DNA of 64,000 nt from Rhodospirillales bacterium (GTDB lineage Bacteria > Pseudomonadota > Alphaproteobacteria > Acetobacterales > Acetobacteraceae), in the NCBI GenBank assembly GCA_043744375.1, contig JAYTUU010000052.1:1450-65449 (forward strand), written 5' to 3'. Both the position numbers and the translations under genes were made by a program. Numbering within the stretch: position 1 is the stretch's first letter; each line of letters begins with the position of its first letter. Below the pieces are notes generated by a model, which had not been told where the DNA came from, did no database searches, and saw nothing but the letters and a program-made list of their open reading frames with translations. Shown here piece by piece: positions 6,423 to 41,356 of the stretch.

Positions 6423-6989
6423 ATGGCGGCCGATCTGAACGCACTGAAAACGGACCTAACGCGCCGCATGGATGGCGCGCTGGAAATGCTGCGCCGCGAC
6501 TTCTCGGGCCTGCGGACGGGCCGCGCCAGCCCCGCTCTGCTGGAGCCCGTGCGCGTCGAGGCCTATGGCAGCGAGGTGCCGCTGGCCCAGGTTGGCACCA
6601 TTGCCGTACCGGAGGCGCGCCTGCTCACCGTGCAGGTGTGGGACCGCTCGCTGGTCAATAATGTCGTCAAGGCGATCCGCGATTGCGGCCTCGGGCTCAA
6701 CCCGGCCGGCGACGGTCAACTGGTTCGCGTGCCCATTCCGCAATTGACCGGTGAGCGTCGGCAGGAGCTGTCGAAGGCGGCGCATCGCTATGCCGAGGGC
6801 AGCAAGGTCGCGGTGCGTGGTGTCCGGCGCGACGGGATGGAGCAGACCAAGGTGCTGGAAAAGAAGCACGAGATCGGCCAGGACGACGAGAAGCGCTGGG
6901 CCGATGAGATCCAGAAACTGACCGACCAGTATATCAAACGCATCGATGAAGTCCTTGTCGACAAGGACAGGGAAATCAAGCAGGTCTGA
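6423..6989 (+). CDS. frr: Ribosome recycling factor
   Basis: LRTGRASPALLEPVRVEAYGSEVPLAQVGTIAVPEARLLTVQVWD; 188 aa; conserved position. Confidence 0.97.
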   Translation: MAADLNALKTDLTRRMDGALEMLRRDFSGLRTGRASPALLEPVRVEAYGSEVPLAQVGTIAVPEARLLTVQVWDRSLVNNVVKAIRDCGLGLNPAGDGQLVRVPIPQLTGERRQELSKAAHRYAEGSKVAVRGVRRDGMEQTKVLEKKHEIGQDDEKRWADEIQKLTDQYIKRIDEVLVDKDREIKQV

Positions 6990-6998
6990 GTGAACCCC

Positions 6999-7775
6999 AT
7001 GGCGGCAAGCGACGCGCAGGCCAAGACGAAGGTGCCCGGAACGGCGCCGGTGGGGGGCGTTCCAGCTCTGCCCGCACCGCCGACCCATGTCGCCATCATC
7101 ATGGACGGCAATGGCCGATGGGCTGCCGCCAAGGGTCTGCCACGTGTCGCCGGGCATCGCGCGGGGGTTCAAGCGGTCCGCCGCACCATCGAGACGGCGA
7201 CCTCGCTCGGCGTCTCATGGCTTACCCTCTACGCGTTCAGCAGCGAGAACTGGCGCCGCCCGCTCAGCGAGGTGATGGACCTCACCGGGCTGCTGCGTCA
7301 CTTCCTGCGCAGCGAGATCGCCGAGTTGAAGGCCGAGGGCGTCCGCCTGCATTTCATCGGCGACCGCGCCCGCTTCGAGGGCGACATCCAGTTCGACCTC
7401 GGCGCCGCCGAGCGCGACACCGCCGCCAACACGCGGCTGAACCTGGTGATCGCGCTGTCCTATGGCGCGCGTGCCGAGATCGCCGCCGCTGCCCGTGCCG
7501 CCGCCGAGGCCGTGCGCGCCGGCACGCTCGATCCGGCCGACATCACTGAGGCCAGTTTTGCCGCGTTCCTTTCCACTGCCGGCATCCCCGACCCTGATCT
7601 GATCATTCGCACCTCGGGCGAGCAGCGGCTGTCCAATTTCCTGCTTTGGCAGAGCGCCTATGCCGAACTGGTGTTTCTCGACGTGCTCTGGCCCGATTTC
7701 GGCCCGGCGCAGTTTGCGGAAGCGCTGGCGGAATTTGCGCGGCGCGAGCGCCGCTTCGGTGCCCGCCCTGGCTGA
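6999..7775 (+). CDS. uppS: Ditrans,polycis-undecaprenyl-diphosphate synthase
   Basis: [13 protein letters not shown] and [24 protein letters not shown] motifs. GTG 6990 is an alternative start. Confidence 0.93.
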
Positions 7776-8475: not shown

Positions 8476-9644
8476 GCGCGAAAACGGTCACCGTGCTCGG
8501 CAGCACCGGCAGTGTGGGCACCCAGACGGTCGAACTTCTCGCCGCCGACCCGCAGCGATTTCGCGTCCGTGCATTGGTTGGCGGCCGGCAGGCGGGGCTG
8601 CTCGCGGCCCAGGCGCGCGCGCTTGGGGCCGAGTGGGCGGTCATCAGCGACGAGGCGGCCTTCGCCGAACTGCAAGCCGCCCTCGCCGGCTCCGGGGTGC
8701 GCTGCGCCGCCGGGCGGGAGGCGGTGATCGCCGCCGCGGCTTTGCCGGCCGATTGGACCATGGCCGCCATCACCGGAGCGGCCGGGCTGGAGCCGACGCT
8801 GGCCGCCATTCGCGGCGGCGGCGCGGTTGCCTTGGCCAACAAGGAGGCGCTGGTCTGCGCCGGCGCGGTCATGCTGCGGGCCGTGCGCGATCACGGCGCC
8901 ACGCTATTGCCGGTTGATTCCGAGCACAACGCCATCTTCCAATCAATGGCCGACGGCAATCGCGGTGCGATCGAGAAGATCATCTTGACCGCCTCGGGCG
9001 GCCCGTTCCGCACGTCGAGCATGGCTGAAATGCGCTCCGCTCGCCCGGAAGCCGCGCTGAAACATCCGGTCTGGTCGATGGGGGCGAAGATCTCGATCGA
9101 CAGCGCGACGATGATGAACAAGGGCCTCGAACTGATCGAGGCGGCGCGGCTGTTCGACCTGTCGGAGAGCGCCATCGGTGTGTTGATCCACCCGCAATCC
9201 GTTATTCACGGCCTCGTCTACTACCATGACGGCAGCGTGTTGGCGCAGCTTGGCTCGCCCGACATGCGAGTGCCGATCGCCCATACCCTCGCCTGGCCGG
9301 CGCGCATGGCCACGCCGGCGCCGCGGCTCGACCTTGCGGCCGTCGCCCGGCTCGAATTCGCCGAACCCGATCCGGTGCAGTTCCCTGCCCTCGGCCTCGC
9401 CCGCGCCGCTCTCGTGGCAGGTGGCGGGGCGCCCGCGATCCTGAGCGCAGCCAACGAAATCGCCGTTGCCGCCTTCCTCGATCGCCGCATCGGCTTCCTC
9501 GACATCGTCGATATCGGCGCCCGCGTGCTCGACGCCCTCGGGGCGCCGCCCGCCGAGTCCCTCGATGCCGTGCTCGGTCTCGACGCTGCGGCCCGGGAGG
9601 CTGCCAGCCGTCTCTGTGCCCTGTGCGCCCGCCCCGCCGCCTGA
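8472..9644 (+). CDS. dxr: 1-deoxy-D-xylulose 5-phosphate reductoisomerase
   Basis: VTVLGSTGSVGTQT, LANKEALV, DSEHNAIFQ motifs; ATG 8472 overlaps the cdsA stop (ATGA). Confidence 0.95.
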   Translation: MSAKTVTVLGSTGSVGTQTVELLAADPQRFRVRALVGGRQAGLLAAQARALGAEWAVISDEAAFAELQAALAGSGVRCAAGREAVIAAAALPADWTMAAITGAAGLEPTLAAIRGGGAVALANKEALVCAGAVMLRAVRDHGATLLPVDSEHNAIFQSMADGNRGAIEKIILTASGGPFRTSSMAEMRSARPEAALKHPVWSMGAKISIDSATMMNKGLELIEAARLFDLSESAIGVLIHPQSVIHGLVYYHDGSVLAQLGSPDMRVPIAHTLAWPARMATPAPRLDLAAVARLEFAEPDPVQFPALGLARAALVAGGGAPAILSAANEIAVAAFLDRRIGFLDIVDIGARVLDALGAPPAESLDAVLGLDAAAREAASRLCALCARPAA

Positions 9645-11047: not shown

Positions 11048-13399
11048 TTGACTCGCACTCGCGCAGCGCTGCTTTCCGCCTTCTGCCTGCTGTTCGCCGC
11101 AGGCCCGGATCTGTCGCACCCGCCGACGGCCAGCGCCCAGGCCGTGCCTGCAAGGCCGGGCGCCGTGGCGGGCCAGGGCGGACTGGTGGGCTCGGTGAAG
11201 ATCGAGGGCAACCAGCGCATCGAGGAGGGCACGATCCGCTCCTACATGCTGCTTCAACCCGGCGACCCGTTCGACTCCGAGCAACTCGATCGCAGCCTCA
11301 AGACGCTGTTCGCCACCGGCTTGTTCAGCGACGTCACCCTGCGGCGCGAGGGTAACGCGCTGGTCGTCAAGGTCGTCGAGAACCCGATCGTCAACCGCAT
11401 CGCCTTCGAGGGCAACAAACAGGTCACCGACGAGGCGCTGCGCCCGGAGCTGCAACTGCGCGCCCGCGCGGTGTTCACCAACGCCACCGCCCAGGCCGAC
11501 CGCCAGCGCATGCTCGACCTCTACGCGCGCAAGGGCCGCTATGCCGCGCGGGTCGAACCCAAGATCATCCAGCTCGACCAGAACCGGGTCGATGTCGTCT
11601 TCGAGATCGACGAGGGCGCGAACACGCTGACCAGCCGCATCGCCTTCGTCGGCAACCGTGCCTACAGCGAGGGCAAGCTCGGCGAGGTCATCTCATCGCG
11701 TGAGGAGGCCTGGTGGCGCTTCCTGTCGACCTCCGACAGCTACGATCCCGACCGGATGAATTTCGACAAGGAGCAGCTGCGCCGCTTCTATCTGTCCAAG
11801 GGTTACGCCGATGTCGAGATCGTAAGCGCCACCGCCGAACTCGCGCCCGACCGGTCCGCCTTCTTCATCACCTTCACGATCAACGAGGGCGAACGCTACA
11901 CAGTCTCCAAGGCCGAGCTGAACGTCACGCTGAAGGGCGTTACTGCCGAGTCGCTGCAATCCCAGATGCCGTTAGACGTGGGCGACTGGTACGACGGCGA
12001 TGCCATCGAGCGCGCCGTGCAGGCGCTCAGCGACGATCTGCAGGGCCGCGGTTTTCCCTTCGTGGAAATTAAGCCGCGCGTGCAGCGCGATCGGGAAAAG
12101 CGCACCATCGAGATTGTGCTCGATGTCGGCGAGGGCCCGCGCGTCTACATCGAACGCATCGACATCACCGGCAACCAGCGCACCTATGACAAGGTGATCC
12201 GCCGCGAGTTCCGGGTCGGCGAGGGCGATCCGTTCAACGTCGCCTTGGTGCGCCTGTCGCGCCAGCGCATCGAGGACCTGGAATACTTCAACCGCATCGA
12301 GATCCTGTCGCAAACCGGTTCGGCACCCGACAAGGTTGTCCTGAACGCGGTCATCGAGGAAAAGGCGACCGGCCAGCTCCTGCTCGGCGGTGGCTATTCG
12401 ACCGATATCGGGGCGCTCGTCTCGTTCGGTCTGCGCGAGAAGAACCTGGTCGGCACCGGCATCGACGGCAGCTTCAACACCGTGCTGGCGCAGAAGCAGA
12501 GTCAGATCAATTTCTCGCTCACCGACCCGTATTTCCTCGACCGCAACCTCGTGGCCGGGTTCGATATCTTCCACATCGTGCAGAACAACACCGACATCGC
12601 CGAGTATCGCGAGAGGCGCACCGGCGTGAGCCTCCGGCTGGGCTACCAGTTCAGCGAGCATCTCCGCCAGTTGATCACCTACTCGGCGGTGGAGCGTAAC
12701 ATCTACGCCGTCGGCGCGAATGCCAGCGTTTATGTCAAGGACGCCAAGGGAGCCTCGCTGCTGTCGCAGATCAGCCAGGCACTGACGCTGGACTATCGCG
12801 ACAGCCGGGTCGATCCGCGCCGCGGCTTCGTGATCCGCCTTGGCACCGATTTCGCCGGCCTCGGCGGCGATGCCCGCTTTGCGCGCGCCAAGATCGACGC
12901 GTCCTACTACATCCCGCTCGAGCGGGTATTCGGAGACCCCGATTGGGTCCTCGCGATCAACGCGGGGGTGGGCCAGATGTTCACCTTCGGCCGCAACGAG
13001 CGCATCATCGACCGGTTCTTCCTCGGCGGCGACAATTTGCGCGGCTTCCAGACCGGTGGCGTCGGTCCGCACTCGATCTCGACCGGGGACAGCATCGGCG
13101 GCCGGTTCATCTGGACGCAATCGACCGAGCTGCGGTTCCCCTTGCCGGTGTCTGCCGATCTCGGCATGACCGGCCGGGCCTTCGTCGATGTCGGCTCGCT
13201 GTCGGAGTTGAATCAGCTCCTGCTCAACGGTGTTCCGCAGGCCTTCACCAACAGCGGCGCGCCGCGGGTCGGCGCTGGCGTCGGCATTTCGTGGAAAACA
13301 CCGTTCGGGCTGATCAATATCGATCTCGGGCAGGCGGTGGTGAAGAAGAAATTCGACCAGACGCAGCTGTTGCGCTTTGGTTTCGGCACAAGGTTCTAA
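11048..13399 (+). CDS. bamA: Outer membrane protein assembly factor BamA
   Basis: Signal peptide, repeated POTRA-like segments (IRVEGNQRI..., IAFEGNKQV..., IAFVGNRAY..., IDITGNQRTYD), C-terminal beta-barrel ending RFGFGTRF. TTG start. Confidence 0.93.
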   Translation: MTRTRAALLSAFCLLFAAGPDLSHPPTASAQAVPARPGAVAGQGGLVGSVKIEGNQRIEEGTIRSYMLLQPGDPFDSEQLDRSLKTLFATGLFSDVTLRREGNALVVKVVENPIVNRIAFEGNKQVTDEALRPELQLRARAVFTNATAQADRQRMLDLYARKGRYAARVEPKIIQLDQNRVDVVFEIDEGANTLTSRIAFVGNRAYSEGKLGEVISSREEAWWRFLSTSDSYDPDRMNFDKEQLRRFYLSKGYADVEIVSATAELAPDRSAFFITFTINEGERYTVSKAELNVTLKGVTAESLQSQMPLDVGDWYDGDAIERAVQALSDDLQGRGFPFVEIKPRVQRDREKRTIEIVLDVGEGPRVYIERIDITGNQRTYDKVIRREFRVGEGDPFNVALVRLSRQRIEDLEYFNRIEILSQTGSAPDKVVLNAVIEEKATGQLLLGGGYSTDIGALVSFGLREKNLVGTGIDGSFNTVLAQKQSQINFSLTDPYFLDRNLVAGFDIFHIVQNNTDIAEYRERRTGVSLRLGYQFSEHLRQLITYSAVERNIYAVGANASVYVKDAKGASLLSQISQALTLDYRDSRVDPRRGFVIRLGTDFAGLGGDARFARAKIDASYYIPLERVFGDPDWVLAINAGVGQMFTFGRNERIIDRFFLGGDNLRGFQTGGVGPHSISTGDSIGGRFIWTQSTELRFPLPVSADLGMTGRAFVDVGSLSELNQLLLNGVPQAFTNSGAPRVGAGVGISWKTPFGLINIDLGQAVVKKKFDQTQLLRFGFGTRF

Positions 13400-18322: not shown

Positions 18323-18424
18323 TCACGCAGCGCGGACGTTGCGCGGCGCGCCGGCAACCCCGCGGGTGAACTGGCGGGCAATGTTGGCGGCTCCGAGGAT
18401 GCCGTAGCGGAGCGGGGAGGGCAT
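18323..18424 (-). pseudogene. 5' remnant of a Gfo/Idh/MocA oxidoreductase gene (truncated duplicate of 56542..57570)
   Basis: My translation MPSPLRYGILGAANIARQFTRGVAGAPRNVRAA* compares with MTSPLRYGILGAANIARQFTRGVAGSPLATV... for the intact gene. It ends 1 nt after the LLM gene stop. Confidence 0.75.
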
Positions 18425-19392
18425 GGTCGGCTCCTGGATTTTCGGGAGAATGCGGCAGTCCGGAGGGATCGACCAGGGGATATTTATTACGAATTAGTAA
18501 CAAAATGCTCGTGCATCTGCGGCTGGTGCGGCATTCCCGGGAGGCGGCGCCGGGGGTGGCCAGGGCGGTGGGCGCAGGAGAGCGGGCGGCGTGGCCGGCC
18601 GGGGCGCGTTGGGCGGGTTGGTGAATGGATGCCGGGCATGCGGCGCGAGGTCGGCGGGGGTGTGCGCCGGCGGCTGGTCCGGCGACTGGTCCGGCTGTGC
18701 CATGCGTGCGGTGCGCGGGGCGCTCGGCGGGTTGGGTTGGCGCGCGGGCCGGTTGGCGGGCGGCGTGCGGGGTTGGCTGTCCTGGCACGGGCGGTTGGGC
18801 AAGGCGGGCGGCAGGCCGGCGGTCTGGAAGAAAGCCAGCAGGTGGGCGAGGCCATCGCGCAGATGGCCGATTCGCCGCCAAACTGGCCCGGCCCAGGCGC
18901 CGAACAGACGCTGGCGCAGGGCGAGCAACGGCGTGGCGGGGGCCAGCATTGCATCCAGGCACAGGATGATCGCCTCCAGCACACGACACAGAGCCGCCGC
19001 GTCGGAGGCGCCAGGCCGGGGTTGGGGGGGAGCAATGTTCATATTGTGTTCCTAGCAAACCGCTACGCCGGACGCAAGGAAATTTTTCCTCTAAGCGCTA
19101 TTTTTTCCGTGGTGCGATGCGGGAGAAGCGGACGCCGAGACTGATACTGGCCGAACCGCCGGCGATGGGGGCGGTGAAGGATCGCGACGCCGGGTGCGGG
19201 CACGCTGCCGCCAGTGAGCGCGGCGCCCCCGCGCGCGCCGGGCTGGGGGAGCGGCATGGGCAGGCAGTTGCGGGGGGCGACGAGTGCGACGGCGATGCAG
19301 CAGGCGCTTTGCACCGCCTGGGCATGCGCGGGCGCCTTCGAGCGGGATGGGCAGAGAGTGGACAGCCGTATCGACGAGACAGCTTCGAATGC
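18340..19392. repeat. R1: ~1.05-kb direct repeat, paralogous to R2 at 57486..58567
   Basis: By-eye alignment shows long identical runs in the same orientation, e.g. GGCGGCGTGCGGGGTTGGCTGTCCTGGCACGGGCGGTTGGGCAAGGCGGGCGGC and CATATTGTGTTCCTAGCAAACCG. Left boundary is approximate (+/-15 nt). Confidence 0.9.
18494..19042 (-). CDS. Hypothetical protein: ~80-aa helical N-terminal domain plus a long proline-rich tail (paralogue at 58194)
   Basis: MNIAPPQPRPGASDAAALCRVLEAIILCLDAMLAPATPLLALRQRLFGAWAGPVWRRIGHLRDGLAHLLAFFQ...; the frame is kept in both R copies despite indels. I recognise no family. Confidence 0.45.
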   Translation of the reverse strand: MNIAPPQPRPGASDAAALCRVLEAIILCLDAMLAPATPLLALRQRLFGAWAGPVWRRIGHLRDGLAHLLAFFQTAGLPPALPNRPCQDSQPRTPPANRPARQPNPPSAPRTARMAQPDQSPDQPPAHTPADLAPHARHPFTNPPNAPRPATPPALLRPPPWPPPAPPPGNAAPAADARAFCY

Positions 19393-19720
19393 TTGAGAGT
19401 CCGTCCGGAAACTCCTTCAACGATTGCATAATCTCCGGGTCATGAGCCGGATCGACGCAAGCTTGAGGAATGACAGCGCATTTCGTGTCCGGTTCTCGAA
19501 ATCCTTGGCCAAACGCCGGCACCGGCCGAGCCACGCGAACGTCCGTTCGACCACCCAACGGCGTGGCAAAACGACGAAGCCTTGAGCCGCGTCTGAGCGC
19601 TTGATGATCTCGACCTGCATTTGCGTCAGGAGCTGCGCCACACCTTGCTCGAAGATCGGCCCCTGGTAGCCACCATCGGCAAATACCTTGCGCAGAAACG
19701 GGTAGAGGCCGAACAGCGCA
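19393..19720 (-). mobile_element. IS5-family transposase gene, 3' fragment only (truncated)
   Basis: C-terminal sequence ...ALFGLYPFLRKVFADGGYQGPIFEQGVAQLLTQMQVEIIKRSDAAQGFVVLPRRWVVERTFAWLGRCRRLAKDFENRTRNALSFLKLASIRLMTRRL (stop at 19417). The upstream part of the track ORF is junk. Confidence 0.8.
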
Positions 19721-19743
19721 GTATTATGTAGCAACCGCCACCA
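19721..19743. repeat. 23-bp inverted repeat, left copy (partner 21755..21777)
   Basis: GTATTATGTAGCAACCGCCACCA; its exact reverse complement occurs at 21755-21777. Confidence 0.9.
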
Positions 19744-19787
19744 CGGAGCGGAAGCGGAGTGCCCGGCCTTCGGGGTAGCCTCCGGGC

Positions 19788-20222
19788 ATGAAGATCGCCA
19801 TGAACGCCCTGCGGCGCAAGCACGCCATGCTCCTCGGCCAGATCGAAGCCGCCGAGCGTGCGATTGAACCGCTCCGCGCCAAGTTCGTGCTGGCAGACGC
19901 CACCATGCTCCTGTTCGAGCCCGACGCCGAGCCAATCCTGATCCCAGGCGTGCGGCCAATCAAGCGCTGCCAATGGTTCAAGCATGGCGAACAGAAGCGG
20001 CTTTGTGTCCGCGCCCTGCGCGAGGCTGACGCGCCCCGGACTACCACCCAGGTTGCCCGCTACGTCATGGCGGCGAAGAAGCTGCCCGAGGATGGGTTGC
20101 CGAGCCTGGGTGTCATCCGCCGGCAGGTTCGCATCGTCATGTGCCGCATGGAGAAACTGCGGGCCATTCGGCGGATCGTGGAGGCGCCGGATACGTGGTG
20201 GGAGTTGGCGGGTGGAGATTAG
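19788..20222 (+). CDS. Hypothetical 144-aa protein (N-terminal coiled-coil-like segment, basic C-terminal half)
   Basis: GC3-rich codon usage: MKIAMNALRRKHAMLLGQIEAAERAIEPLRAKFVLADATMLLFEPDAEP...RRQVRIVMCRMEKLRAIRRIVE. Followed by hairpin GGCTACGGCGACGTAGCC. Confidence 0.6.
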   Translation: MKIAMNALRRKHAMLLGQIEAAERAIEPLRAKFVLADATMLLFEPDAEPILIPGVRPIKRCQWFKHGEQKRLCVRALREADAPRTTTQVARYVMAAKKLPEDGLPSLGVIRRQVRIVMCRMEKLRAIRRIVEAPDTWWELAGGD

Positions 20223-20547
20223 TAGCCTCGGCTACGGCGACGTAGCCGTAGTCCGAGATGGAGACACAAGCTCAGCAGTTGCCGATCACGAAAATGTCAT
20301 ATATAAAATTGACCGATTCAAAACAACGGGTTGTCACGATTCCCCATGCCTTAGCCCCAGATTTTGATTCCCTACTTGCGATTCGAACTTGCAGATTCGT
20401 ACAAGGCAAGTGGAACCGGACGGTTTTGGATGGGAGCCTTGACACTTTCGCGGGACGCTGTAATCGACACCGTCCCCAAATATAGGGGTGAATACCAAGT
20501 TTGCACCCCGATCGCTGGTTCGCCAGCCACAGGGAGAGGATAGAGTT

Positions 20548-20784
20548 ATGTCGCACCAAAAAACCAGCGTCCGTGGTCGTGAAGACCCGGGAGGGAAAAG
20601 CGCGGTCGATTCGGCTTTCAATTGGGAGCATCTAATCAAGCAGGTCGTTGCTCGCTTTGCTCGCGGCAACATCTCCGCTCAAAATGCACGCATCCTTCTC
20701 CCGGCCGAGCAGGCGAGCGAGAACGCTTTGGCTAGGCGCATTGCGCGGAAATGGAAAGCACGCGGCGAGCGGAAGGCGGCTTAA
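20548..20784 (+). CDS. Hypothetical small protein in the AT-rich segment
   Basis: ATG 20548 preceded by GGGAGAGGA; MSHQKTSVRGREDPGGKSAVDSAFNWEHLIKQVVARFARGNISAQNARILLPAEQ... The track ORF starts at 20488. May be the front half of a frameshifted gene with 20751..21482. Confidence 0.35.
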   Translation: MSHQKTSVRGREDPGGKSAVDSAFNWEHLIKQVVARFARGNISAQNARILLPAEQASENALARRIARKWKARGERKAA

Positions 20785-21482
20785 TACTACGAGTGGCGAT
20801 TAGAACGGCGTGCGCTGGGGACGAATCTGTGATAGATGACAGTGAAGTGGAGGCGGCCTTTCGCCTGCTCATCCAAGAGTGGAACGTTGCGGAGCGCCGC
20901 ATCAAGAAGGCTGAGCATGTTCGCGCCGGTGAAGTTGTGGCGTCCGCGATTTTTGAGCTTCGCTATGCGGGTCGGAAGGTTATGGATGCCGTCCAAATTC
21001 TTCTCTCGGGTGATTGGAAAACGAATGAAGAGCGCCGCCGGCTCGTTCTGACATATTTGGCCGACGCCACTGAAGATTGCGTCAAGGCTAAGCATGACGC
21101 GATAGACTCTATGCTGGATTTCAGCACAAGGTGGTTTTACGAGACCGAAAGAATATTGAGTCTGGGTAGCTTAGTGAAATTTTTCCCCGATTACGTGAAT
21201 ATCACATCGGAAATCAGCGAAATACAAGAAAATATTGCGGCGTCTAGAGAGAATAGAATTGATTCACGCGATGGAATTTATGACGATATAGAATCGACAA
21301 AATTAGAAAGTATTCTAAGTCTTTTTCAGAACATGCGAAACTCCCATAAAAGAGTAACAGCGGCGGTTCGTAAAGAGCGTTGTGTTGAGAGATTTCTGAT
21401 CTGGTGCGCTATAATTGGTACAGTTTTGGGGGTTGTGGGAATTGCGGCGGCCTATTGGATGTGGAAGCATCCTATTTCATAG
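20751..21482 (+). CDS. Hypothetical helical protein with one C-terminal transmembrane helix (AT-rich, foreign codon usage)
   Basis: ...EVVASAIFELRYAGRKVMDAVQILL...ADATEDCVKAKHDAIDSMLDF...; C-terminal FLIWCAIIGTVLGVVGIAAAYWMW. Start uncertain (ATG 20751 or GTG 20793). Confidence 0.55.
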   Translation: MESTRRAEGGLILRVAIRTACAGDESVIDDSEVEAAFRLLIQEWNVAERRIKKAEHVRAGEVVASAIFELRYAGRKVMDAVQILLSGDWKTNEERRRLVLTYLADATEDCVKAKHDAIDSMLDFSTRWFYETERILSLGSLVKFFPDYVNITSEISEIQENIAASRENRIDSRDGIYDDIESTKLESILSLFQNMRNSHKRVTAAVRKERCVERFLIWCAIIGTVLGVVGIAAAYWMWKHPIS

Positions 21483-21524
21483 CTAATATTCATTACGACG
21501 TTAAGCCGCCTTCTGCGCCCGTTG

Positions 21525-21754
21525 TCAGTAGCCTGACCGATCCACGCTCGGCCGGCTGGCCATCGCCAAGGCGACGACGTTGCGAACCTGCGTCCCGTTG
21601 GGCACGCGGCGGTTGTCCTCGCGCCACGAGGCTTCCTGCGCATAGCGGATCAAGTAGCTGCCCGCGATGTGGTGATGATGCCCGATCTCGGCCCGGCGCA
21701 TCCGGCTAAAGAATTCTTCGGCGCCGTTGGTGTAGACGCCCGTCGATTTCCCTA
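21525..21754 (-). mobile_element. IS1595-family-type transposase gene, C-terminal fragment (truncated)
   Basis: My minus-strand translation: ...GKSTGVYTNGAEEFFSRMRRAEIGHHHHIAGSYLIRYAQEASWREDNRRVPNGTQVRNVVALAMASRPSVDRSGY*. Below the track's ORF size cutoff. Family call is from memory of similar transposase C-termini. Confidence 0.65.
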
Positions 21755-21777
21755 TGGTGGCGGTTGCTACATAATAC
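21755..21777. repeat. 23-bp inverted repeat, right copy (partner 19721..19743)
   Basis: TGGTGGCGGTTGCTACATAATAC, the exact reverse complement of 19721-19743. Confidence 0.9.
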
Positions 21778-21779
21778 CG

Positions 21780-21892
21780 GAACAGGGCAGATTTCCTGAC
21801 CTAATGGGATAGAGCTACCTCAGGGCGGCTGCCCTCGGGACTCCGCAGCCAAACGGATAGACGTTTTTTGGTTCTTTTTTTCAAAAAAGAAC
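21780..21892. repeat. A1: ~110-bp double-palindrome repeat (copies A2 59645..59783, A3 60654..60757)
   Basis: GAACAGGGCAGATTTCCTGACCTAATG...ACCTCAGGGCGGCTGCCCTCGGGACTCCGCAGCCAAAC...TTTTTTGGTTCTTTTTTTCAAAAAAGAAC. Confidence 0.85.
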
Positions 21893-22024
21893 AGCGCTTC
21901 TTTTTGTCGAGGGCCAACGCGCATGGCGCCGGGCACCCTGGAAGCCGCATCCGGAGTGCTGTAGGAAGTGGTGGATGTTCCATTGTCGTTTGATGATTAT
22001 GTATCAGCATAATCCGATTTTATC

Positions 22025-22756
22025 ATGACCGAAGCCGGCGAGCGCATCGCCAAGTGGCTCGCGCGCGCCGGTGTGGCCAGCCGGCGGGATGCGGAGAAGC
22101 TGATCGGCGAAGGGCGGGTCAAGCTCAACAACGCGCTGGTCACCCACCCCGCCACCTTCATCACCGAGGGTGATCTGGTGACGGTGAACGGCACCCTCGT
22201 CGCCCCCACGGCGGCCGAGAAGCGTACGCGGCTGTTTCGCTACCACAAGCCGCCCGGCCTCATGGTCACCCACAAGGACCCCGAGGGCCGGCCGACCGTG
22301 TTCGACCAGTTGCCCAAGCACCTGCCCCGTCTCGTCAGCGTCGGCCGGCTTGACCTCAACAGCGAAGGGCTGCTGCTGCTGACCAATGACGGCGCGTTGG
22401 CGCGCCATCTCGAACTCCCCGCCACCGCCTGGCTGCGGCGCTATCGTGCGCGTGCTTTCGGCGAGGTGGATCAGGCGGCGCTGTCGGCCCTGGCCAAGGG
22501 CATCACCGTCGATGGCGAGCGCTACGGCCCGATCGAAGCGGCGTTGGACAGCCGCAAGGGCGACAACCTCTGGATTACCGTGGCCCTGAAAGAGGGACGC
22601 AACCGGGAAGTCCGAAAGGTTCTTGCCCATCTCGGCCTGAAGGTTTCGCGTCTCATTCGTGTCGCCTATGGGCCGTTCCAGCTTGGTCTGCTGCCGAAGA
22701 ACAACATCGAGGAAGTGCCGGCCAAGGTTTTGCGGGAGCAGGTGAAGTTCCCGTGA
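22025..22756 (+). CDS. rluB: 23S rRNA pseudouridine synthase, RluB type (S4 domain plus RsuA/RluB catalytic domain)
   Basis: ERIAKWLARAGVASRRDAEKLIGEGRVKLN and GRLDLNSEGLLLLTNDGALARHLELP motifs. Confidence 0.88.
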   Translation: MTEAGERIAKWLARAGVASRRDAEKLIGEGRVKLNNALVTHPATFITEGDLVTVNGTLVAPTAAEKRTRLFRYHKPPGLMVTHKDPEGRPTVFDQLPKHLPRLVSVGRLDLNSEGLLLLTNDGALARHLELPATAWLRRYRARAFGEVDQAALSALAKGITVDGERYGPIEAALDSRKGDNLWITVALKEGRNREVRKVLAHLGLKVSRLIRVAYGPFQLGLLPKNNIEEVPAKVLREQVKFP

Positions 22757-24017: not shown

Positions 24018-25805
24018 TCAGCGCCTTCCGAACAGCCGTTCGATCTCGGCCTTGCTAAGTTTGAGGAACGTCGGACGGCCATGACTGCATGTGGCCGCGC
24101 GCGGGGTGGCCTCCATCTGGCGCAGCAGCGCGTCCATCTCGGGTGCCGCCAGACGCCGCCCGGCCCGGATCGAGCCGTGGCAGGCCATGCGGGCTATGAC
24201 TGCGTCGAGCTTTGCGTCGAGCGCCGTGGTCTCGTCCATTTCGGCCAGTTCATCGGCGAGATCGCGCAGCAGCGGCGCGGGGTCGGGGGCACCGAGCGCG
24301 GCCGGCAGCGTGCGCACCAGGATGGCACCGGCGCCGAACGCCTCGATCTCCAGGCCGAGCCGCGCCAGATCGGCGGTGCGATCGAGCAGCCGGTCCACAT
24401 CGGCGCGCGGCAGATCGACGACGGCTGGCAGCAGCAGCGCCTGTGTGCGGACGGTACCGCCGAGCACCTGCTCGCGCAGCGCCTCGTGGGTGAGCCGCTC
24501 ATGGGCAGCATGCTGGTCCACCAGGACCAGGCTGCCATCGGCGGCGACCGCGATGATGTAGGTGTCCAGCACCTGGGCGACCGGGGCACCGAGTGGGAAG
24601 GCCATGTTCGGGATCGCGGCAGTGTGCGCGGTGAACGGGCCGTGGAAGCGGTCGGGGGCCGCGAGCATGCGGGCGGCCGGCGCACCGAGCGGCAGCCGCG
24701 CCTCGGCCATCCCGGTCGGTTGACTGGTCGTCACCGCATGGCCTCTCGGCACCAGCCGCAAGGGCGGACGGGACTGCATCAGGTGGGCCCCGAGCACCAA
24801 AGGCGCCGCCGCCCCGGCGCCGCCGGACAAGGCCCGCCCTAGTCCACCGATGACCAGGGAGCGCACCCCGTCGGCGTCGCGAAAGCGCACCTCGGCCTTG
24901 GCGGGATGCACGTTCACGTCCACCTCGTCGGCCGGCAGATCGAGGAACACGGCAACGATGGCGTGGCGGCCATGGGCGATGACGTCGCGATAGGCGACCC
25001 GCACGGCGGTGCGCAGCAGCGGGTCGGCGACCGGGCGGCCATTGACGATCAGCGTCTGCAACGCGGTGGTCGCGCGGCTCACCATCGGGGCGCAGGCGAA
25101 GCCAGTCAAATGCAGGCTGCCGCGCATGGCGTCCACCGGCAGCAACGCGGTGGCGGCCTCGGGGCCGAGCAGGGCGGCGACGCGTGCCTCGCGGGATTGG
25201 GCCGGCAGGTCGAAGGACACGCGGCCGTCGCTCTCGAAGCGGAAGGCGGTGGCGGGGGCCGCGAGGGCTAGGCGGCGGATGGCGATTTCGGTGGCGTCGG
25301 CCTCGCTGCGGGCGGATTTGAGGAATTTGCGTCGGGCGGGGGTGGCGTAGAACAGGTCTCGCACGACCACCCGGGTGCCTTTGGCGCCGGCGGCCGGGCT
25401 GACCCCGCTGACCACGCCGCCCTCGACGGTGATGGCGACGGCGTGCTCGGCCTCCGCCGTGCGGCTGGTGATGGACAGGCGGGCGGCGGCGCCGATCGAG
25501 GGCAGCGCCTCGCCGCGGAAGCCGAGGGTGGAGATACGGACCAGCTGATCGTCGGTCAGTTTGGAGGTCGCGTGGCGTTGGATGGCGAGGGCCAGTTCAT
25601 CGCTGGTCATGCCGGTGCCGTCATCGGCGATCTCGATGCGCTCGATGCCGCCGCCGGCGATGGCGACGCTGATGCGCCGCGCCCCCGCATCGAGCGCGTT
25701 CTCCACCAGTTCGCGCGCCGCGGCGGCCGGCCGTTCGATCACCTCGCCCGCCGCGATCCGGTTGACGGTCGCCTCTGACAGAAGCCGGATGCGGCCAGCT
25801 TGCAC
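24018..25805 (-). CDS. mutL: DNA mismatch repair protein MutL
   Basis: IRLLSEATVNRIAAGEVIERPAAAARELVENALDAGA, GFRGEALPSI, C-terminal CHGSIRAGRRL...HGRPT. GTG start. Confidence 0.95.
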   Translation of the reverse strand: MQAGRIRLLSEATVNRIAAGEVIERPAAAARELVENALDAGARRISVAIAGGGIERIEIADDGTGMTSDELALAIQRHATSKLTDDQLVRISTLGFRGEALPSIGAAARLSITSRTAEAEHAVAITVEGGVVSGVSPAAGAKGTRVVVRDLFYATPARRKFLKSARSEADATEIAIRRLALAAPATAFRFESDGRVSFDLPAQSREARVAALLGPEAATALLPVDAMRGSLHLTGFACAPMVSRATTALQTLIVNGRPVADPLLRTAVRVAYRDVIAHGRHAIVAVFLDLPADEVDVNVHPAKAEVRFRDADGVRSLVIGGLGRALSGGAGAAAPLVLGAHLMQSRPPLRLVPRGHAVTTSQPTGMAEARLPLGAPAARMLAAPDRFHGPFTAHTAAIPNMAFPLGAPVAQVLDTYIIAVAADGSLVLVDQHAAHERLTHEALREQVLGGTVRTQALLLPAVVDLPRADVDRLLDRTADLARLGLEIEAFGAGAILVRTLPAALGAPDPAPLLRDLADELAEMDETTALDAKLDAVIARMACHGSIRAGRRLAAPEMDALLRQMEATPRAATCSHGRPTFLKLSKAEIERLFGRR

Positions 25806-38758: not shown

Positions 38759-41356
38759 TCAATACAGCCCGCCCAGGTCGCTGTCGACCCCGGCGGCCTG
38801 TGGCGAGGTGCCGCGGTTGGCGGCAGCGGCGCCGCTGCCGGTGGCGCCGCTGCCGCCGGTCCCCGCGGGGCCGGAGGCGCCCGGGGTCTGGCCGGGCTTG
38901 AAGGCGTCCGTCACCGTGCCCGAGCCGCTGTCCCAGCTTGCCAGGCTGACGCCGAGCGGGGCTGTGAATTTCAGGTTCGGCCGGCCCTTGAGCGCGACCG
39001 CCATGAAATCACGCCAGATCGGCGCCGACGTGCTGCCGCCAGTTTCGTTGTTGCCCAGCGTCGTCGGCGTATCGAAACCGATCCATACGGCGGTGACGAG
39101 GTCGGGCGTGAAGCCGACGAACCAGGCGTCGTTGTAGTCCTGGCTAGTGCCGGTCTTGCCGGCGATGGCGCGGTTGAGGCCAGCGCCGGCGGCCGATCCA
39201 GTGCCGCGGCTGACCGCGCCCTGCAACATCGTGACCAGCTGGAACACGCTGGCCGCATCGGCGACCTGCCGGCGCTCGTCCACCAGCTGTGGCGGCTGTG
39301 CCGGGTCGGCGCAGCCGGGGCAGGCGGCGGTGGGGGCGCGCCACAGCACCCGGCCGTCGCGATCCTGCACGCTGTCGATCAACGTCGGGATCACCTCGCG
39401 CCCGCCGGTGGCGAAGGTGGCGTAGCCGGCGGCGTTGCGTAGCACCGTCGTCTCGACCGCGCCGAGGGCGGCGGGCAGCACGCGCGGCATGTCGTCGACC
39501 ACGTGCAGGGCAATCGCGGTCGCCGCCACCGCCTGCATGCCGATGCGGTCGGCGAGGCGCACGGTGACGAGGTTGAGTGATTTCTCCAGCGCAACGCGCA
39601 GCGGCACGGGCCCGTTGAAATCGAGCGTGTAGTTCGACGGCCGCCATTTTCCCGCCGCCCCCTGATCGACCACGAAGGGCGCGTCGAGGAAGCGCTGCGA
39701 GGGCGAAATACCCGCCTGCATGCCGGCGAGATACACATAGGGCTTGAAGCTCGACCCGGGCTGGCGGTTCGCCTGCGTCACCCGGTTGAACTGGCTGAGC
39801 TCGAAACTCCAGCCGCCCGACAGTGCCACCACCCGCCCGGTCGCCGTTTCGATGGAGACCAGCGCGCCCTGCACCTGCGGAATTTGCCGCAGCAGCGCCC
39901 GCTCGGTTCGCGCGGCGACGCGGCCCTGCGCGGCCGCGGCGGGCATCGGCTCGATCATGACGAGATCGCCGGCTTGCAGCACTTCGCCAAGCTTGCGCGG
40001 CGGCGGGCCGAGCTTGCCGTCCTTCACCGGACGCGCCCAGCCGAGATCGGCGATCTGCACGGGCAGCACGCGCGGCTGCACGATGGAGGTGCCCGGCGTA
40101 CGCTCCATGAAGCCCAGCTTGGCCTCGGCATCGGCGGTCTCGATCACCACGGCCAGGCGCCATTCGGCCAGCATGCCCGGCGGGCGCGCGGTCTGCGCCA
40201 GCGCGTTGGTCCAGTGCTGGCGGAACCCGGCGCCGACTTCGACGCGCGCCACCGGCCCCCGCCAGCCGCCATGGCGTTGGTCGTAGCGGATCAACCCGTC
40301 ATGGAGCGCCTTGTCGGCAGCGAGTTGCAGGGATGGATCGAGCGTGGTGCGCACCACGAAACCGCCCTGGGTCGTGCGATCCGCGCCGAAACGCTCGACC
40401 AACTGGCGGCGCACTTCTTCGCCAAAGTACTCCCCGCCCGCCACCGTCTCGGCGCGGCGGAACGGCGAGGCCGCGATCGGCGTCGCTTTCGCCGCGGCCG
40501 CCTGGGCTGCGGTGATGACCCGATCATCGGCCATCCGGTCGATCACCCAGTCGCGCCGGGCGCGGGCGGCGTCGGGGAAGCGGAACGGGTTGTAGTTGTT
40601 CGGCGCCTTGGGCAGGGCGGCGAGGAAGGCGGCCTCAGGCAGGGTGATCTGTTCCAGCGATTTGTTGAAATAGGCCTGTGCCGCGGCGGCGACCCCGTAG
40701 GCCTGCAGGCCGAGATAGATCTCGTTGAGGTAGAGTTCGAGAATATGCTCCTTGCTCAGCGTCTGCTCGATCCGCCCCGCCAGGATCATTTCCCGGGCCT
40801 TGCGGGCGATCGAGACCTCGTTGCTCAGCAGCATGTTCTTGGCGACCTGCTGGGTGATCGTCGAGGCCCCGATGGGCCGCTTGCCCTGGCCGTATTGCAG
40901 CACGTCGGTGACCACGGCGCGCAGGATGGCAATCGGGTCGACGCCCTTGTGGCTGAAAAAATTCTGGTCCTCCGCGGAGATGAAGGCTTTTCGGACAACA
41001 TCCGGCACGGCGGCGGCGGGCACGAAGATGCGCCGTTCCGTTGCCAGTTCCGCCAGCAGCCGGCTATCCCCGGCATAGACGCGGCTCATCACCCGCGGCT
41101 GGTAGTCGCGCAGGCTGTCGAGGTCCGGCAGGTCGGCGCTGAAGCGCTGGTATCCCGCGTAGAGCACGCCGACGCCGAGCACCGCACCGAGCATGCCGAT
41201 GCCGAAAATGGTCGTGACAAGCCGCCGCAGCCAGCGCCAGCCATCCGGACGCTTCGCCGGCCTGGGCGCTTTCGGCGGCTTCTCCACGCGCGGCGCCGGT
41301 ACGGGCCGGGACGCTTGCGGCAGCAGACGCTCTCCGGCGGTCAAGGGTTCGCTCAT
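38759..41356 (-). CDS. mrcA: Penicillin-binding protein 1A (bifunctional transglycosylase/transpeptidase)
   Basis: EDQNFFSHKGVD, RKAREM, GSSFKP, GKTGTSQDYNDAWF motifs; Gly/Ala/Ser-rich C-terminal tail. Confidence 0.93.
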   Translation of the reverse strand: MSEPLTAGERLLPQASRPVPAPRVEKPPKAPRPAKRPDGWRWLRRLVTTIFGIGMLGAVLGVGVLYAGYQRFSADLPDLDSLRDYQPRVMSRVYAGDSRLLAELATERRIFVPAAAVPDVVRKAFISAEDQNFFSHKGVDPIAILRAVVTDVLQYGQGKRPIGASTITQQVAKNMLLSNEVSIARKAREMILAGRIEQTLSKEHILELYLNEIYLGLQAYGVAAAAQAYFNKSLEQITLPEAAFLAALPKAPNNYNPFRFPDAARARRDWVIDRMADDRVITAAQAAAAKATPIAASPFRRAETVAGGEYFGEEVRRQLVERFGADRTTQGGFVVRTTLDPSLQLAADKALHDGLIRYDQRHGGWRGPVARVEVGAGFRQHWTNALAQTARPPGMLAEWRLAVVIETADAEAKLGFMERTPGTSIVQPRVLPVQIADLGWARPVKDGKLGPPPRKLGEVLQAGDLVMIEPMPAAAAQGRVAARTERALLRQIPQVQGALVSIETATGRVVALSGGWSFELSQFNRVTQANRQPGSSFKPYVYLAGMQAGISPSQRFLDAPFVVDQGAAGKWRPSNYTLDFNGPVPLRVALEKSLNLVTVRLADRIGMQAVAATAIALHVVDDMPRVLPAALGAVETTVLRNAAGYATFATGGREVIPTLIDSVQDRDGRVLWRAPTAACPGCADPAQPPQLVDERRQVADAASVFQLVTMLQGAVSRGTGSAAGAGLNRAIAGKTGTSQDYNDAWFVGFTPDLVTAVWIGFDTPTTLGNNETGGSTSAPIWRDFMAVALKGRPNLKFTAPLGVSLASWDSGSGTVTDAFKPGQTPGASGPAGTGGSGATGSGAAAANRGTSPQAAGVDSDLGGLY

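Follow-up and report, generated by a model that had tools for sequence, protein, structure and literature searches.

A conserved two-gene cargo in a defective IS1595-family element of a Rhodospirillales bacterium, possibly a module for retention of the element

The 64,000-nt stretch of a Rhodospirillales bacterium genome analyzed here (contig JAYTUU010000052.1 of assembly GCA_043744375.1, positions 1,450 to 65,449; hereafter the window) contains at 19719-21779 a segment of 2,061 bp that is very probably a defective, non-autonomous transporter insertion sequence (tIS) of the IS1595 family, carrying as cargo a pair of adjacent genes, of which the second and larger encodes a tail-anchored membrane protein. 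The kind of element is known; the cargo pair in its dedicated slot is without description in the literature and libraries searched. A tentative reading of the pair is that of a putative two-component retention or toxin-antitoxin (TA)-like module. The original prediction, made from the same letters, had singled out the AT-rich block at 20548-21482 as a two-ORF cargo; it overlooked the inverted repeats, the direct repeat, and the upstream gene ORF144, which together define the block. The features of the element, with strand where one applies, are as follows.

19711-19718: left 8-bp direct repeat, GAACAGCG.
19719-19743 (+): left terminal inverted repeat, CAGTATTATGTAGCAACCGCCACCA.
19788-20222 (+): ORF144, a core accessory gene of about 144 aa, no Pfam domain.
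20439-20444 (+): -35-like box TTGACA of the cargo operon, identified by cross-locus conservation.
20548-20784 (+): small cargo gene, 78 aa; modelled as a disordered N-terminal part followed by a helical hairpin whose loop is invariant.
20829-21482 (+): large cargo gene, 217 aa; predicted cytoplasmic all-helical domain and C-terminal anchor.
21393-21464 (+): predicted transmembrane tail anchor, F215-W238 of the large protein.
21519-21731 (-): C-terminal remnant of an IS1595-family transposase, about 71 codons.
21755-21779 (-): right terminal inverted repeat, reverse complement CGGTATTATGTAGCAACCGCCACCA.
21780-21787: right 8-bp direct repeat, GAACAGGG.

The order of the element is thus left inverted repeat, ORF144 (+), cargo promoter, small gene (+), large gene (+), transposase remnant (-), and right inverted repeat. 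A perfect inverted repeat of 23 nt connects 19721-19743 with 21755-21777, and alignment with the ends of related elements extends the repeats to 25 nt, of which 24 are complementary. Both repeats start with CAG/CGG-TATTATGTAGCAACC, and the end signature CGGnATT...GTAGCAA is common to the window, to six related loci from other contigs (L003, L023, L015, L032, L051, and L064), and to an IS on a Rhodovastum plasmid. The register of the direct repeat was set by aligning the element ends with those of L003, L023, and the Rhodovastum IS (L034), all of which are flanked by perfect 8-mer duplications; in the window, GAACAGCG and GAACAGGG match in seven of eight positions, which by chance would be expected with a probability of about 4e-4.

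The transposase remnant is 58% identical over 71 aa (tblastn) to the C-terminus of the L023 transposase, a protein composed of the domains Zn_ribbon_IS1595 (PF12760) and DDE_Tnp_IS1595 (PF12762). Against PF12762 itself the remnant has an E-value of 1.9e-5 and a score of 25.2 bits, just under the cut-off of 27 bits, because only the last 29 positions of the profile remain. In the window copy the deletion has removed the Zn ribbon and most of the DDE domain, about three quarters of the transposase being lost. No further copy of the transposase or of the inverted repeats was found within the window, and therefore this element cannot move by itself.

The block had been described originally as IS-flanked, which holds on one side only: the IS1595 remnant belongs to the same element, within its inverted repeats, and the single IS sequence outside it is a remnant of the IS5 family. 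The latter, a C-terminal transposase fragment at 19417-19718 (-) that covers positions 169-257 of the NCBIfam model transpos_IS5_3 (E = 1.4e-21), abuts the left direct repeat. To the right of the element (21788-22024) there is no IS5 coding potential, and hence the element probably landed at the edge of an IS5 that was already truncated. For annotation, 19719-21779 is better labelled a defective IS1595-family tIS than an anonymous island.

Three relatives with complete ends and perfect duplications are particularly informative.

L023, a metagenome contig: 4,075 bp, perfect 25-nt inverted repeats, direct repeat TGGAACTC (8/8); left inverted repeat, ORF145, small gene, large gene, transposase (-), DUF6471 gene, 202-aa ORF, right inverted repeat.
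L003, a metagenome-assembled genome of Bradyrhizobium: about 4.1 kb, direct repeat GACAGATC (8/8); order as in L023 through the transposase (-), plus a passenger gene with an XRE-type helix-turn-helix (HTH) domain.
L034, the Rhodovastum atsumiense plasmid NZ_OW485604.1: 1,596 bp, near-identical ends, direct repeat GATCGATC (8/8); cargo-free, with only the transposase and a convergent homologue of ORF144.

The transposases of L003 and L023 are intact or nearly so and have both the Zn ribbon and DDE_Tnp_IS1595. Since the minimal L034 element holds only the transposase and ORF144, these two genes form the core, and the small and large genes are optional cargo. Homologues of ORF144 (L003 6960-7394, L023 7201-7638, L034 4981-5406; named 'hypothetical protein' in RefSeq) stand first in the element in L003, L023, L032, L051, L052, and L064; ORF144 is probably an undescribed transposition accessory protein or regulator. 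The ends are homologous in L003, L023, L032, L034, L051, and L064, and four of the loci (L032, L051, L052, and L064) are compact or truncated copies of the window type. An ISNha5/ISNwi1-like subgroup, with ends of the form CGGnnTT in the ISNha5 group and a length of 3.4-7.9 kb, is only a tentative assignment: the ends read CGGTATT, CGGCATT, and CGCCATT, the length of the full elements is close to 4.1 kb, and the minimal relative measures only 1.6 kb. The L023 element splits a Mg-chelatase (ComM/YifB-like) gene into parts at 6484-7125 and 11182-12114 with a clean 8-bp duplication. The comM gene is a hot spot for other mobile elements.

Overall, genomes, metagenomes, and viral contigs supplied about 36 independent loci of the pair, and at least 16 of these have the transposase, ORF144, or ends of this IS type. 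This count is a lower bound, because many of the contigs are only 1-3 kb long. In L037/38, L015, L006/30, and L042 the cassette occupies the same slot in the opposite orientation, the order being transposase (+), small gene, large gene, and ORF144 (-) where the sequence reaches that far. In L024 a solo right inverted repeat lies 27 nt past the large gene, and the right repeat is also present in L033. No IS trace accompanies the pair in L001, L004, L018, L021, and L059.

The two ORFs appeared in the window ORF list, as noted originally, as one of 98 aa (20488-20784; 78 aa from the ATG at 20548) and one of 243 aa (20751-21482), and their overlap had been taken to mean either translational coupling or one frameshifted gene. 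Neither applies, since the two belong to separate conserved families and a spacer of 44 nt lies between the genes; the overlap is apparent only because the large ORF had been extended to its furthest start codon. In a word-indexed search the large gene had more than 120 relatives, typically of 210-220 aa, covering about 85% of the query. The alignment places the start of the homologues at V27, that is at GTG 20829, which is preceded by GGGGA, and the profile alignment of the gene runs from 20832 to 21470 (positions 2-214 of 217). Judged by this alignment, the large gene is 20829-21482, encodes 217 aa, and starts 44 nt past the stop of the small gene. The frames also stood up to the proposed check by independent reads: contigs assembled from the reads of two separate public sequencing runs match window positions 19345-21634 with 100% identity and no gaps, and thus the frames are not an assembly error. 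An inverted repeat of 16 nt around the large gene (20769-20784 / 21501-21516) was taken to be a chance match.

The small gene is preceded, 8 nt upstream of its ATG at 20548, by GGGAGAGG. Its protein family counts 84 members, of which none is annotated. Residues R36, R39, G40, and N41 are invariant and fall in the motif ARF-RGNI[S/A]AQ. The AlphaFold2 model is confident for residues 25-78 (pLDDT of at least 94), with a disordered N-terminus and the invariant residues in the loop of a helical hairpin. All library scans were run with single sequences and per family member, for both proteins and up to 130 relatives; the small protein had no match in Pfam, NCBIfam, PHROGs, or PADLOC, and Foldseek found no fold match in the PDB. 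A ribbon-helix-helix (RHH, Arc-like) reading of the small protein was considered and rejected, as the model lacks the N-terminal strand and no RHH family matched.

The large protein is all-helical in the AlphaFold2 model (pLDDT 91.3, pTM 0.81), as had been predicted from its sequence, and the single hydrophobic helix at its end, also predicted, was located at F215-W238. Of 130 diverse representatives, 125 have likewise a single hydrophobic helix, which starts at about 89% of the length and is followed by a median of six residues. The 15 residues before the helix contain 4.6 Lys and Arg and those after it 0.9, and this bias implies an N-in topology with the helical domain of about 190 residues in the cytoplasm. 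An exhaustive profile search returned 879 representative clusters with E<=1e-3, of which 438 had E<=1e-10; nearly all of them are single-domain proteins of 200-250 aa. 'Hypothetical protein' was the only source name, and cultured isolates contributed just two members, both of them Methylobacterium. Four residues (K52, R75, R166, and Y177 in the numbering of the 243-aa ORF) are invariant in the 130 representatives; W44, E48, E55, the stretch E69-L-R-Y-x-G74, C110, H115, D116, D119, S165, R169, and R173 are nearly so.

The original remark that no family could be recognized held for both proteins in all sequence, profile, and structure libraries searched. For both proteins and their relatives, the matches in Pfam, NCBIfam, PHROGs, and PADLOC (HEPN, Picorna_P3A, and coiled-coil models) all remained below threshold and were regarded as noise, sequence and profile searches of the PDB gave nothing below E = 0.13, and Foldseek comparisons of both models with the PDB, and of the large model with BFVD, reached at best E = 0.06, with TM-scores below 0.31. 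The structures found by Foldseek were generic long-helix proteins (ClyA, BAR domains, and Vipp1), and a ClyA-like or ESCRT-like assignment was therefore rejected. The HEPN domain (PF05168) is all-alpha like the large protein, and a weak Pfam alignment joins residues 45-132 to HEPN positions 6-91 (E = 0.013-0.02). Membership was nevertheless rejected, because the scores of 15.5-16.1 bits remain below the 22-bit cut-off and a conserved Rx4-6H motif is missing. In particular, PF05168 matched in only 4/28 and 2/130 relatives, and the family alignments have no conserved Arg 4-6 residues ahead of a conserved His: in the window stretch R50-x5-H56, position 56 is Gln in most relatives, and the near-invariant H115 lies within C-x-[KR]-A-[KR]-H-D. 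No HEPN structure was among the Foldseek matches to the large model.

At every locus with enough upstream sequence, the small gene precedes the large gene in the same direction, at a distance of 4-70 nt. This pairing holds down to identities of 31-35%, where the loop of the small protein reads R-G-S-I-P-A-Q (L059) or R-G-N-V (L033). Literature searches returned no account of the pair. A TTGACT/TTGACA box is aligned upstream of the small gene in 10/12 loci, and from this conserved -35-like sequence the cassette seems to carry its own promoter; a generic scan for promoters and terminators found nothing above shuffled expectation in the window and did not call the TTGACA box. The Rfam scan of the window revealed no RNA family. 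Several loci have a short GC hairpin between the -35 box and the Shine-Dalgarno site (L015 at about 7700-7760, CGCGCC-TTTT-GGCGCG; L001; L024), and insertions occur at the same position in the window, L003, L018, and L031; this leader hairpin may be a regulatory element. A conserved cassette boundary or recombination site was also sought downstream of the large gene, and none was found.

The sharp drop in G+C noted originally was reproduced, the recounted values being identical (23/60 at 21181-21240 and 38/60 at 24181-24240). In windows of 300 nt the GC content falls to 0.40 at 21050-21500, compared with a mean of 0.672 for the whole window and 0.66-0.72 in the flanks. The AT-richness belongs to the cargo and not to the whole element, as follows from the G+C content at third codon positions (GC3).

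ORF144: GC3 0.83.
Transposase remnant: GC3 0.83.
Host genes in the window: GC3 0.78-0.87.
Small gene: GC3 0.62.
Large gene: GC3 0.49 (3' half 0.38).

Within single elements, the cargo has GC3 of 0.39-0.63 against 0.67-0.83 in the core genes, which match their GC-rich hosts. The contrast between cargo and core is repeated in L003, L023, L015, L006, and L032, and that between the pair and the host genes in L004, L018, and L024; altogether the pair is AT-shifted in 10/11 loci compared, the exception being L021, where it is ameliorated (GC3 0.78 and 0.73). The view of the block as a foreign, IS-associated accessory module of no known family was borne out in that it is a horizontally acquired cargo. 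A simple 'foreign island' account nevertheless fails to explain its AT-richness, because core and cargo travel together; the options are repeated exchange of the cassette, relaxed codon selection, or selection for AT content as a means of gene silencing. Other passenger ORFs are AT-shifted as well, namely the DUF6471 gene and the 202-aa ORF in L023 and a 154-aa ORF in L015.

In the window, L003, and L023 the transposase is deleted or frameshifted and the cargo next to it is intact; the cargo is also intact in L024, with its solo repeat, and in L001, L004, L018, L021, and L059, where the transposase is gone. In the first 15 independent loci, both genes are intact in nine, the small gene is intact and the large one broken in five, both are decayed in one, and the reverse combination does not occur. 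The large gene of L061-L063 breaks off at about residue 87, where a more distant transposase of the IS1595 type, on the same strand, interrupts it; this looks like the insertion of a second, different IS1595 element into the cargo gene.

With respect to function, we tentatively propose that the pair is a putative two-component retention or TA-like module. The small cytoplasmic protein would bind the membrane-anchored effector and hold it in check. If the small protein were lost or titrated, the effector would be free to harm the cell, its site of action being the inner membrane or a phosphate-bearing ligand at this membrane, so that loss of the element would be penalized by the freed effector. 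A retention role would explain why the cargo outlives the transposase, as well as its AT-richness and presumably weak expression. Consistent with this proposal are the gene order, with the small gene first and the larger effector second, the tail anchor, the own promoter and fixed slot between the core genes, the obligate pairing, and the frequent survival of an intact cargo after loss of the transposase. There is also a precedent, as TA pairs have been described within the transposition module of Tn3-family transposons (Lima-Mendez et al. 2020, PMC7157771). The five loci with a small gene intact and a large gene broken, against none of the reverse, fit a toxin-like large gene, but the asymmetry is not significant (P of about 0.25 from the gene lengths), and some frameshifts in the relatives may be errors of long-read assembly.

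Several further observations weigh against this proposal. Neither protein resembles a known toxin, antitoxin, or DNA-binding fold in Pfam, NCBIfam, PADLOC, PHROGs, or the PDB; in particular, the small protein has no recognizable RHH, HTH, or other DNA-binding domain of the antitoxin type, and a tail-anchored protein of 217 aa is unusual as a type II toxin. Addiction modules are usually common on plasmids, but no copy of the family was present in a set of 72,556 of them. Ameliorated pairs amid housekeeping genes in L021 and L059 would be equally possible under a host benefit. Finally, the ratio of nonsynonymous to synonymous substitution rates (dN/dS) gave no usable measure: none of the large-gene pairs had a usable dS, and the ratios of 0.10-0.52 in eight small-gene pairs (dS 1.0-1.5) are uninformative, because synonymous sites are saturated. 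Taken as a whole, the identity of the element together with the retention mechanism is the best explanation overall, and we hold it with somewhat less than even confidence.

The original prediction put forward, as a candidate and not as a firm call, a defence or abortive-infection effector with a sensor-like soluble domain. In this scenario the tail-anchored protein would be a membrane-disrupting effector released on infection, and the IS would carry a benefit for the host. We consider it unlikely. It could account for a mobile, AT-rich, two-gene accessory operon with a membrane-anchored product, for its fast turnover with many broken copies, and for the two copies on contigs flagged as viral or prophage, both of which are broken. 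Moreover, in L006 a 206-aa ORF at 8916-9536 with the HEPN-like motif RNQLAH (Rx4H) lies downstream of the frameshifted pair; it is the only defence-flavored neighbor seen at any locus. However, the window proteins and the 130 relatives have no significant match to 5,027 PADLOC models, the scattered hits being coiled-coil noise: the best match to PADLOC-DB 2.0 in the window is PDC-M63B (E = 0.019), and no family recurs among the relatives. In about 12 annotated contexts the neighbors are housekeeping genes (glnD/mutS, recA, truB, the split Mg-chelatase gene, an FAD monooxygenase, MliC) or other IS elements, and no copy was found in 72,556 PLSDB plasmids or in 50,697 INPHARED phage genomes. The expected proximity of homologues to defence genes was not seen in these contexts: the constant partner is the transposase of one transposon type and not a defence island, and nothing was found in support of a sensor-like domain.

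A function beneficial or neutral for the host, such as signalling of envelope state or stress, with the small protein as partner or regulator, is likewise improbable. Here the transposon would have spread the pair, and some lineages would have fixed it. The intact, ameliorated pair of L021 adjoins truB without any IS trace, the pair of L059 is situated between rsmI and a yraN-like gene, and identical proteins from many marine and soil samples occur at the fixed sites glnD|pair|mutS and FAD-monooxygenase|pair|MliC, all of which would be natural for a gene of use to the cell. The constellation of invariant charged residues may also point to binding of a ligand or partner. On the other hand, the distribution is patchy, with six matches among 185,579 species representatives in a motif scan; the AT shift persists in 10/11 loci; disruption is frequent; and at least 16/36 loci are physically linked to a single IS type.

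Still less probable is a role of the pair in transposition, for instance as a membrane-tethered regulator and its partner that tune the transposase or ORF144, or that provide target immunity. The long-standing tie to the same IS ends, seen even for the 35%-identical pair of the AT-rich L033, is in agreement with such a role, and so are the fixed slot between two core genes and, in the window-type orientation, the transcription of the pair into the 3' end of the transposase gene. Nevertheless, the minimal IS of Rhodovastum lacks the pair and is flanked by a perfect 8-bp duplication all the same, and therefore the pair is not needed for transposition. In addition, the pair remains intact where the transposase is gone, the cassette is found in both orientations, and cargo and core differ in composition.

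The reading of the ORFs as pseudogene debris without transcription, or as a single gene broken by a frameshift, can practically be dismissed: the element is defective with a deleted transposase, the longest frames overlap, and many relatives elsewhere are broken, but the window ORFs are full-length with respect to the family profiles (positions 4-72 of 72 for the small and 2-214 of 217 for the large protein), retain all invariant residues, represent two different families whose genes are always separate, have Shine-Dalgarno-like sites on both genes and a conserved -35 box, are identical in two independent assemblies, and yield highly confident structure models.

A more far-reaching version of the proposed retention module, which we regard as doubtful, would see in the pair a previously unrecognized membrane-acting TA or abortive module with folds without known relatives, long carried by an IS1595 lineage in a dedicated slot between its two core genes for its own retention, the persistent AT-richness of the pair within otherwise GC-adapted elements being itself selected, for example to hold the effector under xenogeneic silencing.

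Outside the element, several other observations were made. Mismatch-repair genes are neighbors of the pair in three unrelated hosts, mutS in L001 and in L004/L007-L014, and mutL at 24018-25805, 2.5 kb from the pair in the window; this proximity was judged a coincidence. A perfect AT-rich palindrome, GTTCTTTTTT-TC-AAAAAAGAAC at 21866-21887, precedes the pseudouridine-synthase-like gene at 22025; it might serve as a terminator in both directions or as a binding site for a protein. The stretch 18350-19100, with the IS5 remnant on one side and a luciferase-like monooxygenase gene on the other, has a GC content of up to 0.78 and a strong GC skew of +0.35. Short direct repeats occur in it, and both strands contain long ORFs rich in Pro, Ala, and Arg, e.g. 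18494-19042 (-). At 38786-38881 ARAGORN predicts a tRNA-Ala(GGC) of 96 nt, unusually long for a bacterial tRNA; no tRNA was found there in the Rfam scan at gathering thresholds.

Transporter ISs are a known but little-studied class, and how their cargo serves the element or the host is for the most part not understood. The cargo module described here can be delimited precisely: it consists of two unannotated families, with about 880 and at least 84 clusters, whose genes always accompany each other. If it is indeed a retention or TA-like module, the idea of 'TA inside the transposition module', known from Tn3, would reach simple IS elements, and a tail-anchored effector of an unmatched fold would be added. 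Even with another function, the pair would remain a compact two-gene system that can be cloned, with K52, R75, R166, Y177, and the R-G-N loop as targets for mutagenesis.

Comparison with known systems places the element among the ISs of the IS1595 family, which generate 8-bp duplications and encode a Zn-finger plus DDE transposase (PMC8101967). Transporter ISs with passenger genes, such as ISNha5, have been described as well (PMC11891212, PMC3129680, both citing Siguier, Gagnevin & Chandler 2009). Like them, our elements combine, in intact relatives, a DDE_Tnp_IS1595 transposase and an N-terminal Zn ribbon with inverted repeats and 8-bp duplications, and they contain genes unrelated to transposition within their inverted repeats; in L003 these include an XRE-type regulator, as reported for ISNha5. 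They differ in that the window copy is short of about three quarters of its transposase and immobile alone, and in that no description was found of the conserved pair or of ORF144 as a core gene.

The pair resembles type II TA systems in having a small upstream and a larger downstream gene that are co-oriented, separated by 4-70 nt, and always together, in its location on mobile DNA, patchy distribution, and frequent decay, and in a small protein with a disordered segment. In contrast to those systems, the small protein lacks a DNA-binding domain and its disordered part is N-terminal, and the presumed effector is a 217-aa tail-anchored protein with an unmatched helical fold. With regard to the TA pairs of Tn3 transposons, the transposon family is a different one, the Tn3-borne pairs belong to known families (ParE, PIN, Gp49, HEPN), and neither cargo protein matches a TA family, toxicity and neutralization being only putative here. 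Nevertheless, both are two-gene operons with their own promoter that lie between transposon core genes and not among distal passengers, and in both cases the proposed role is the establishment or retention of the element.

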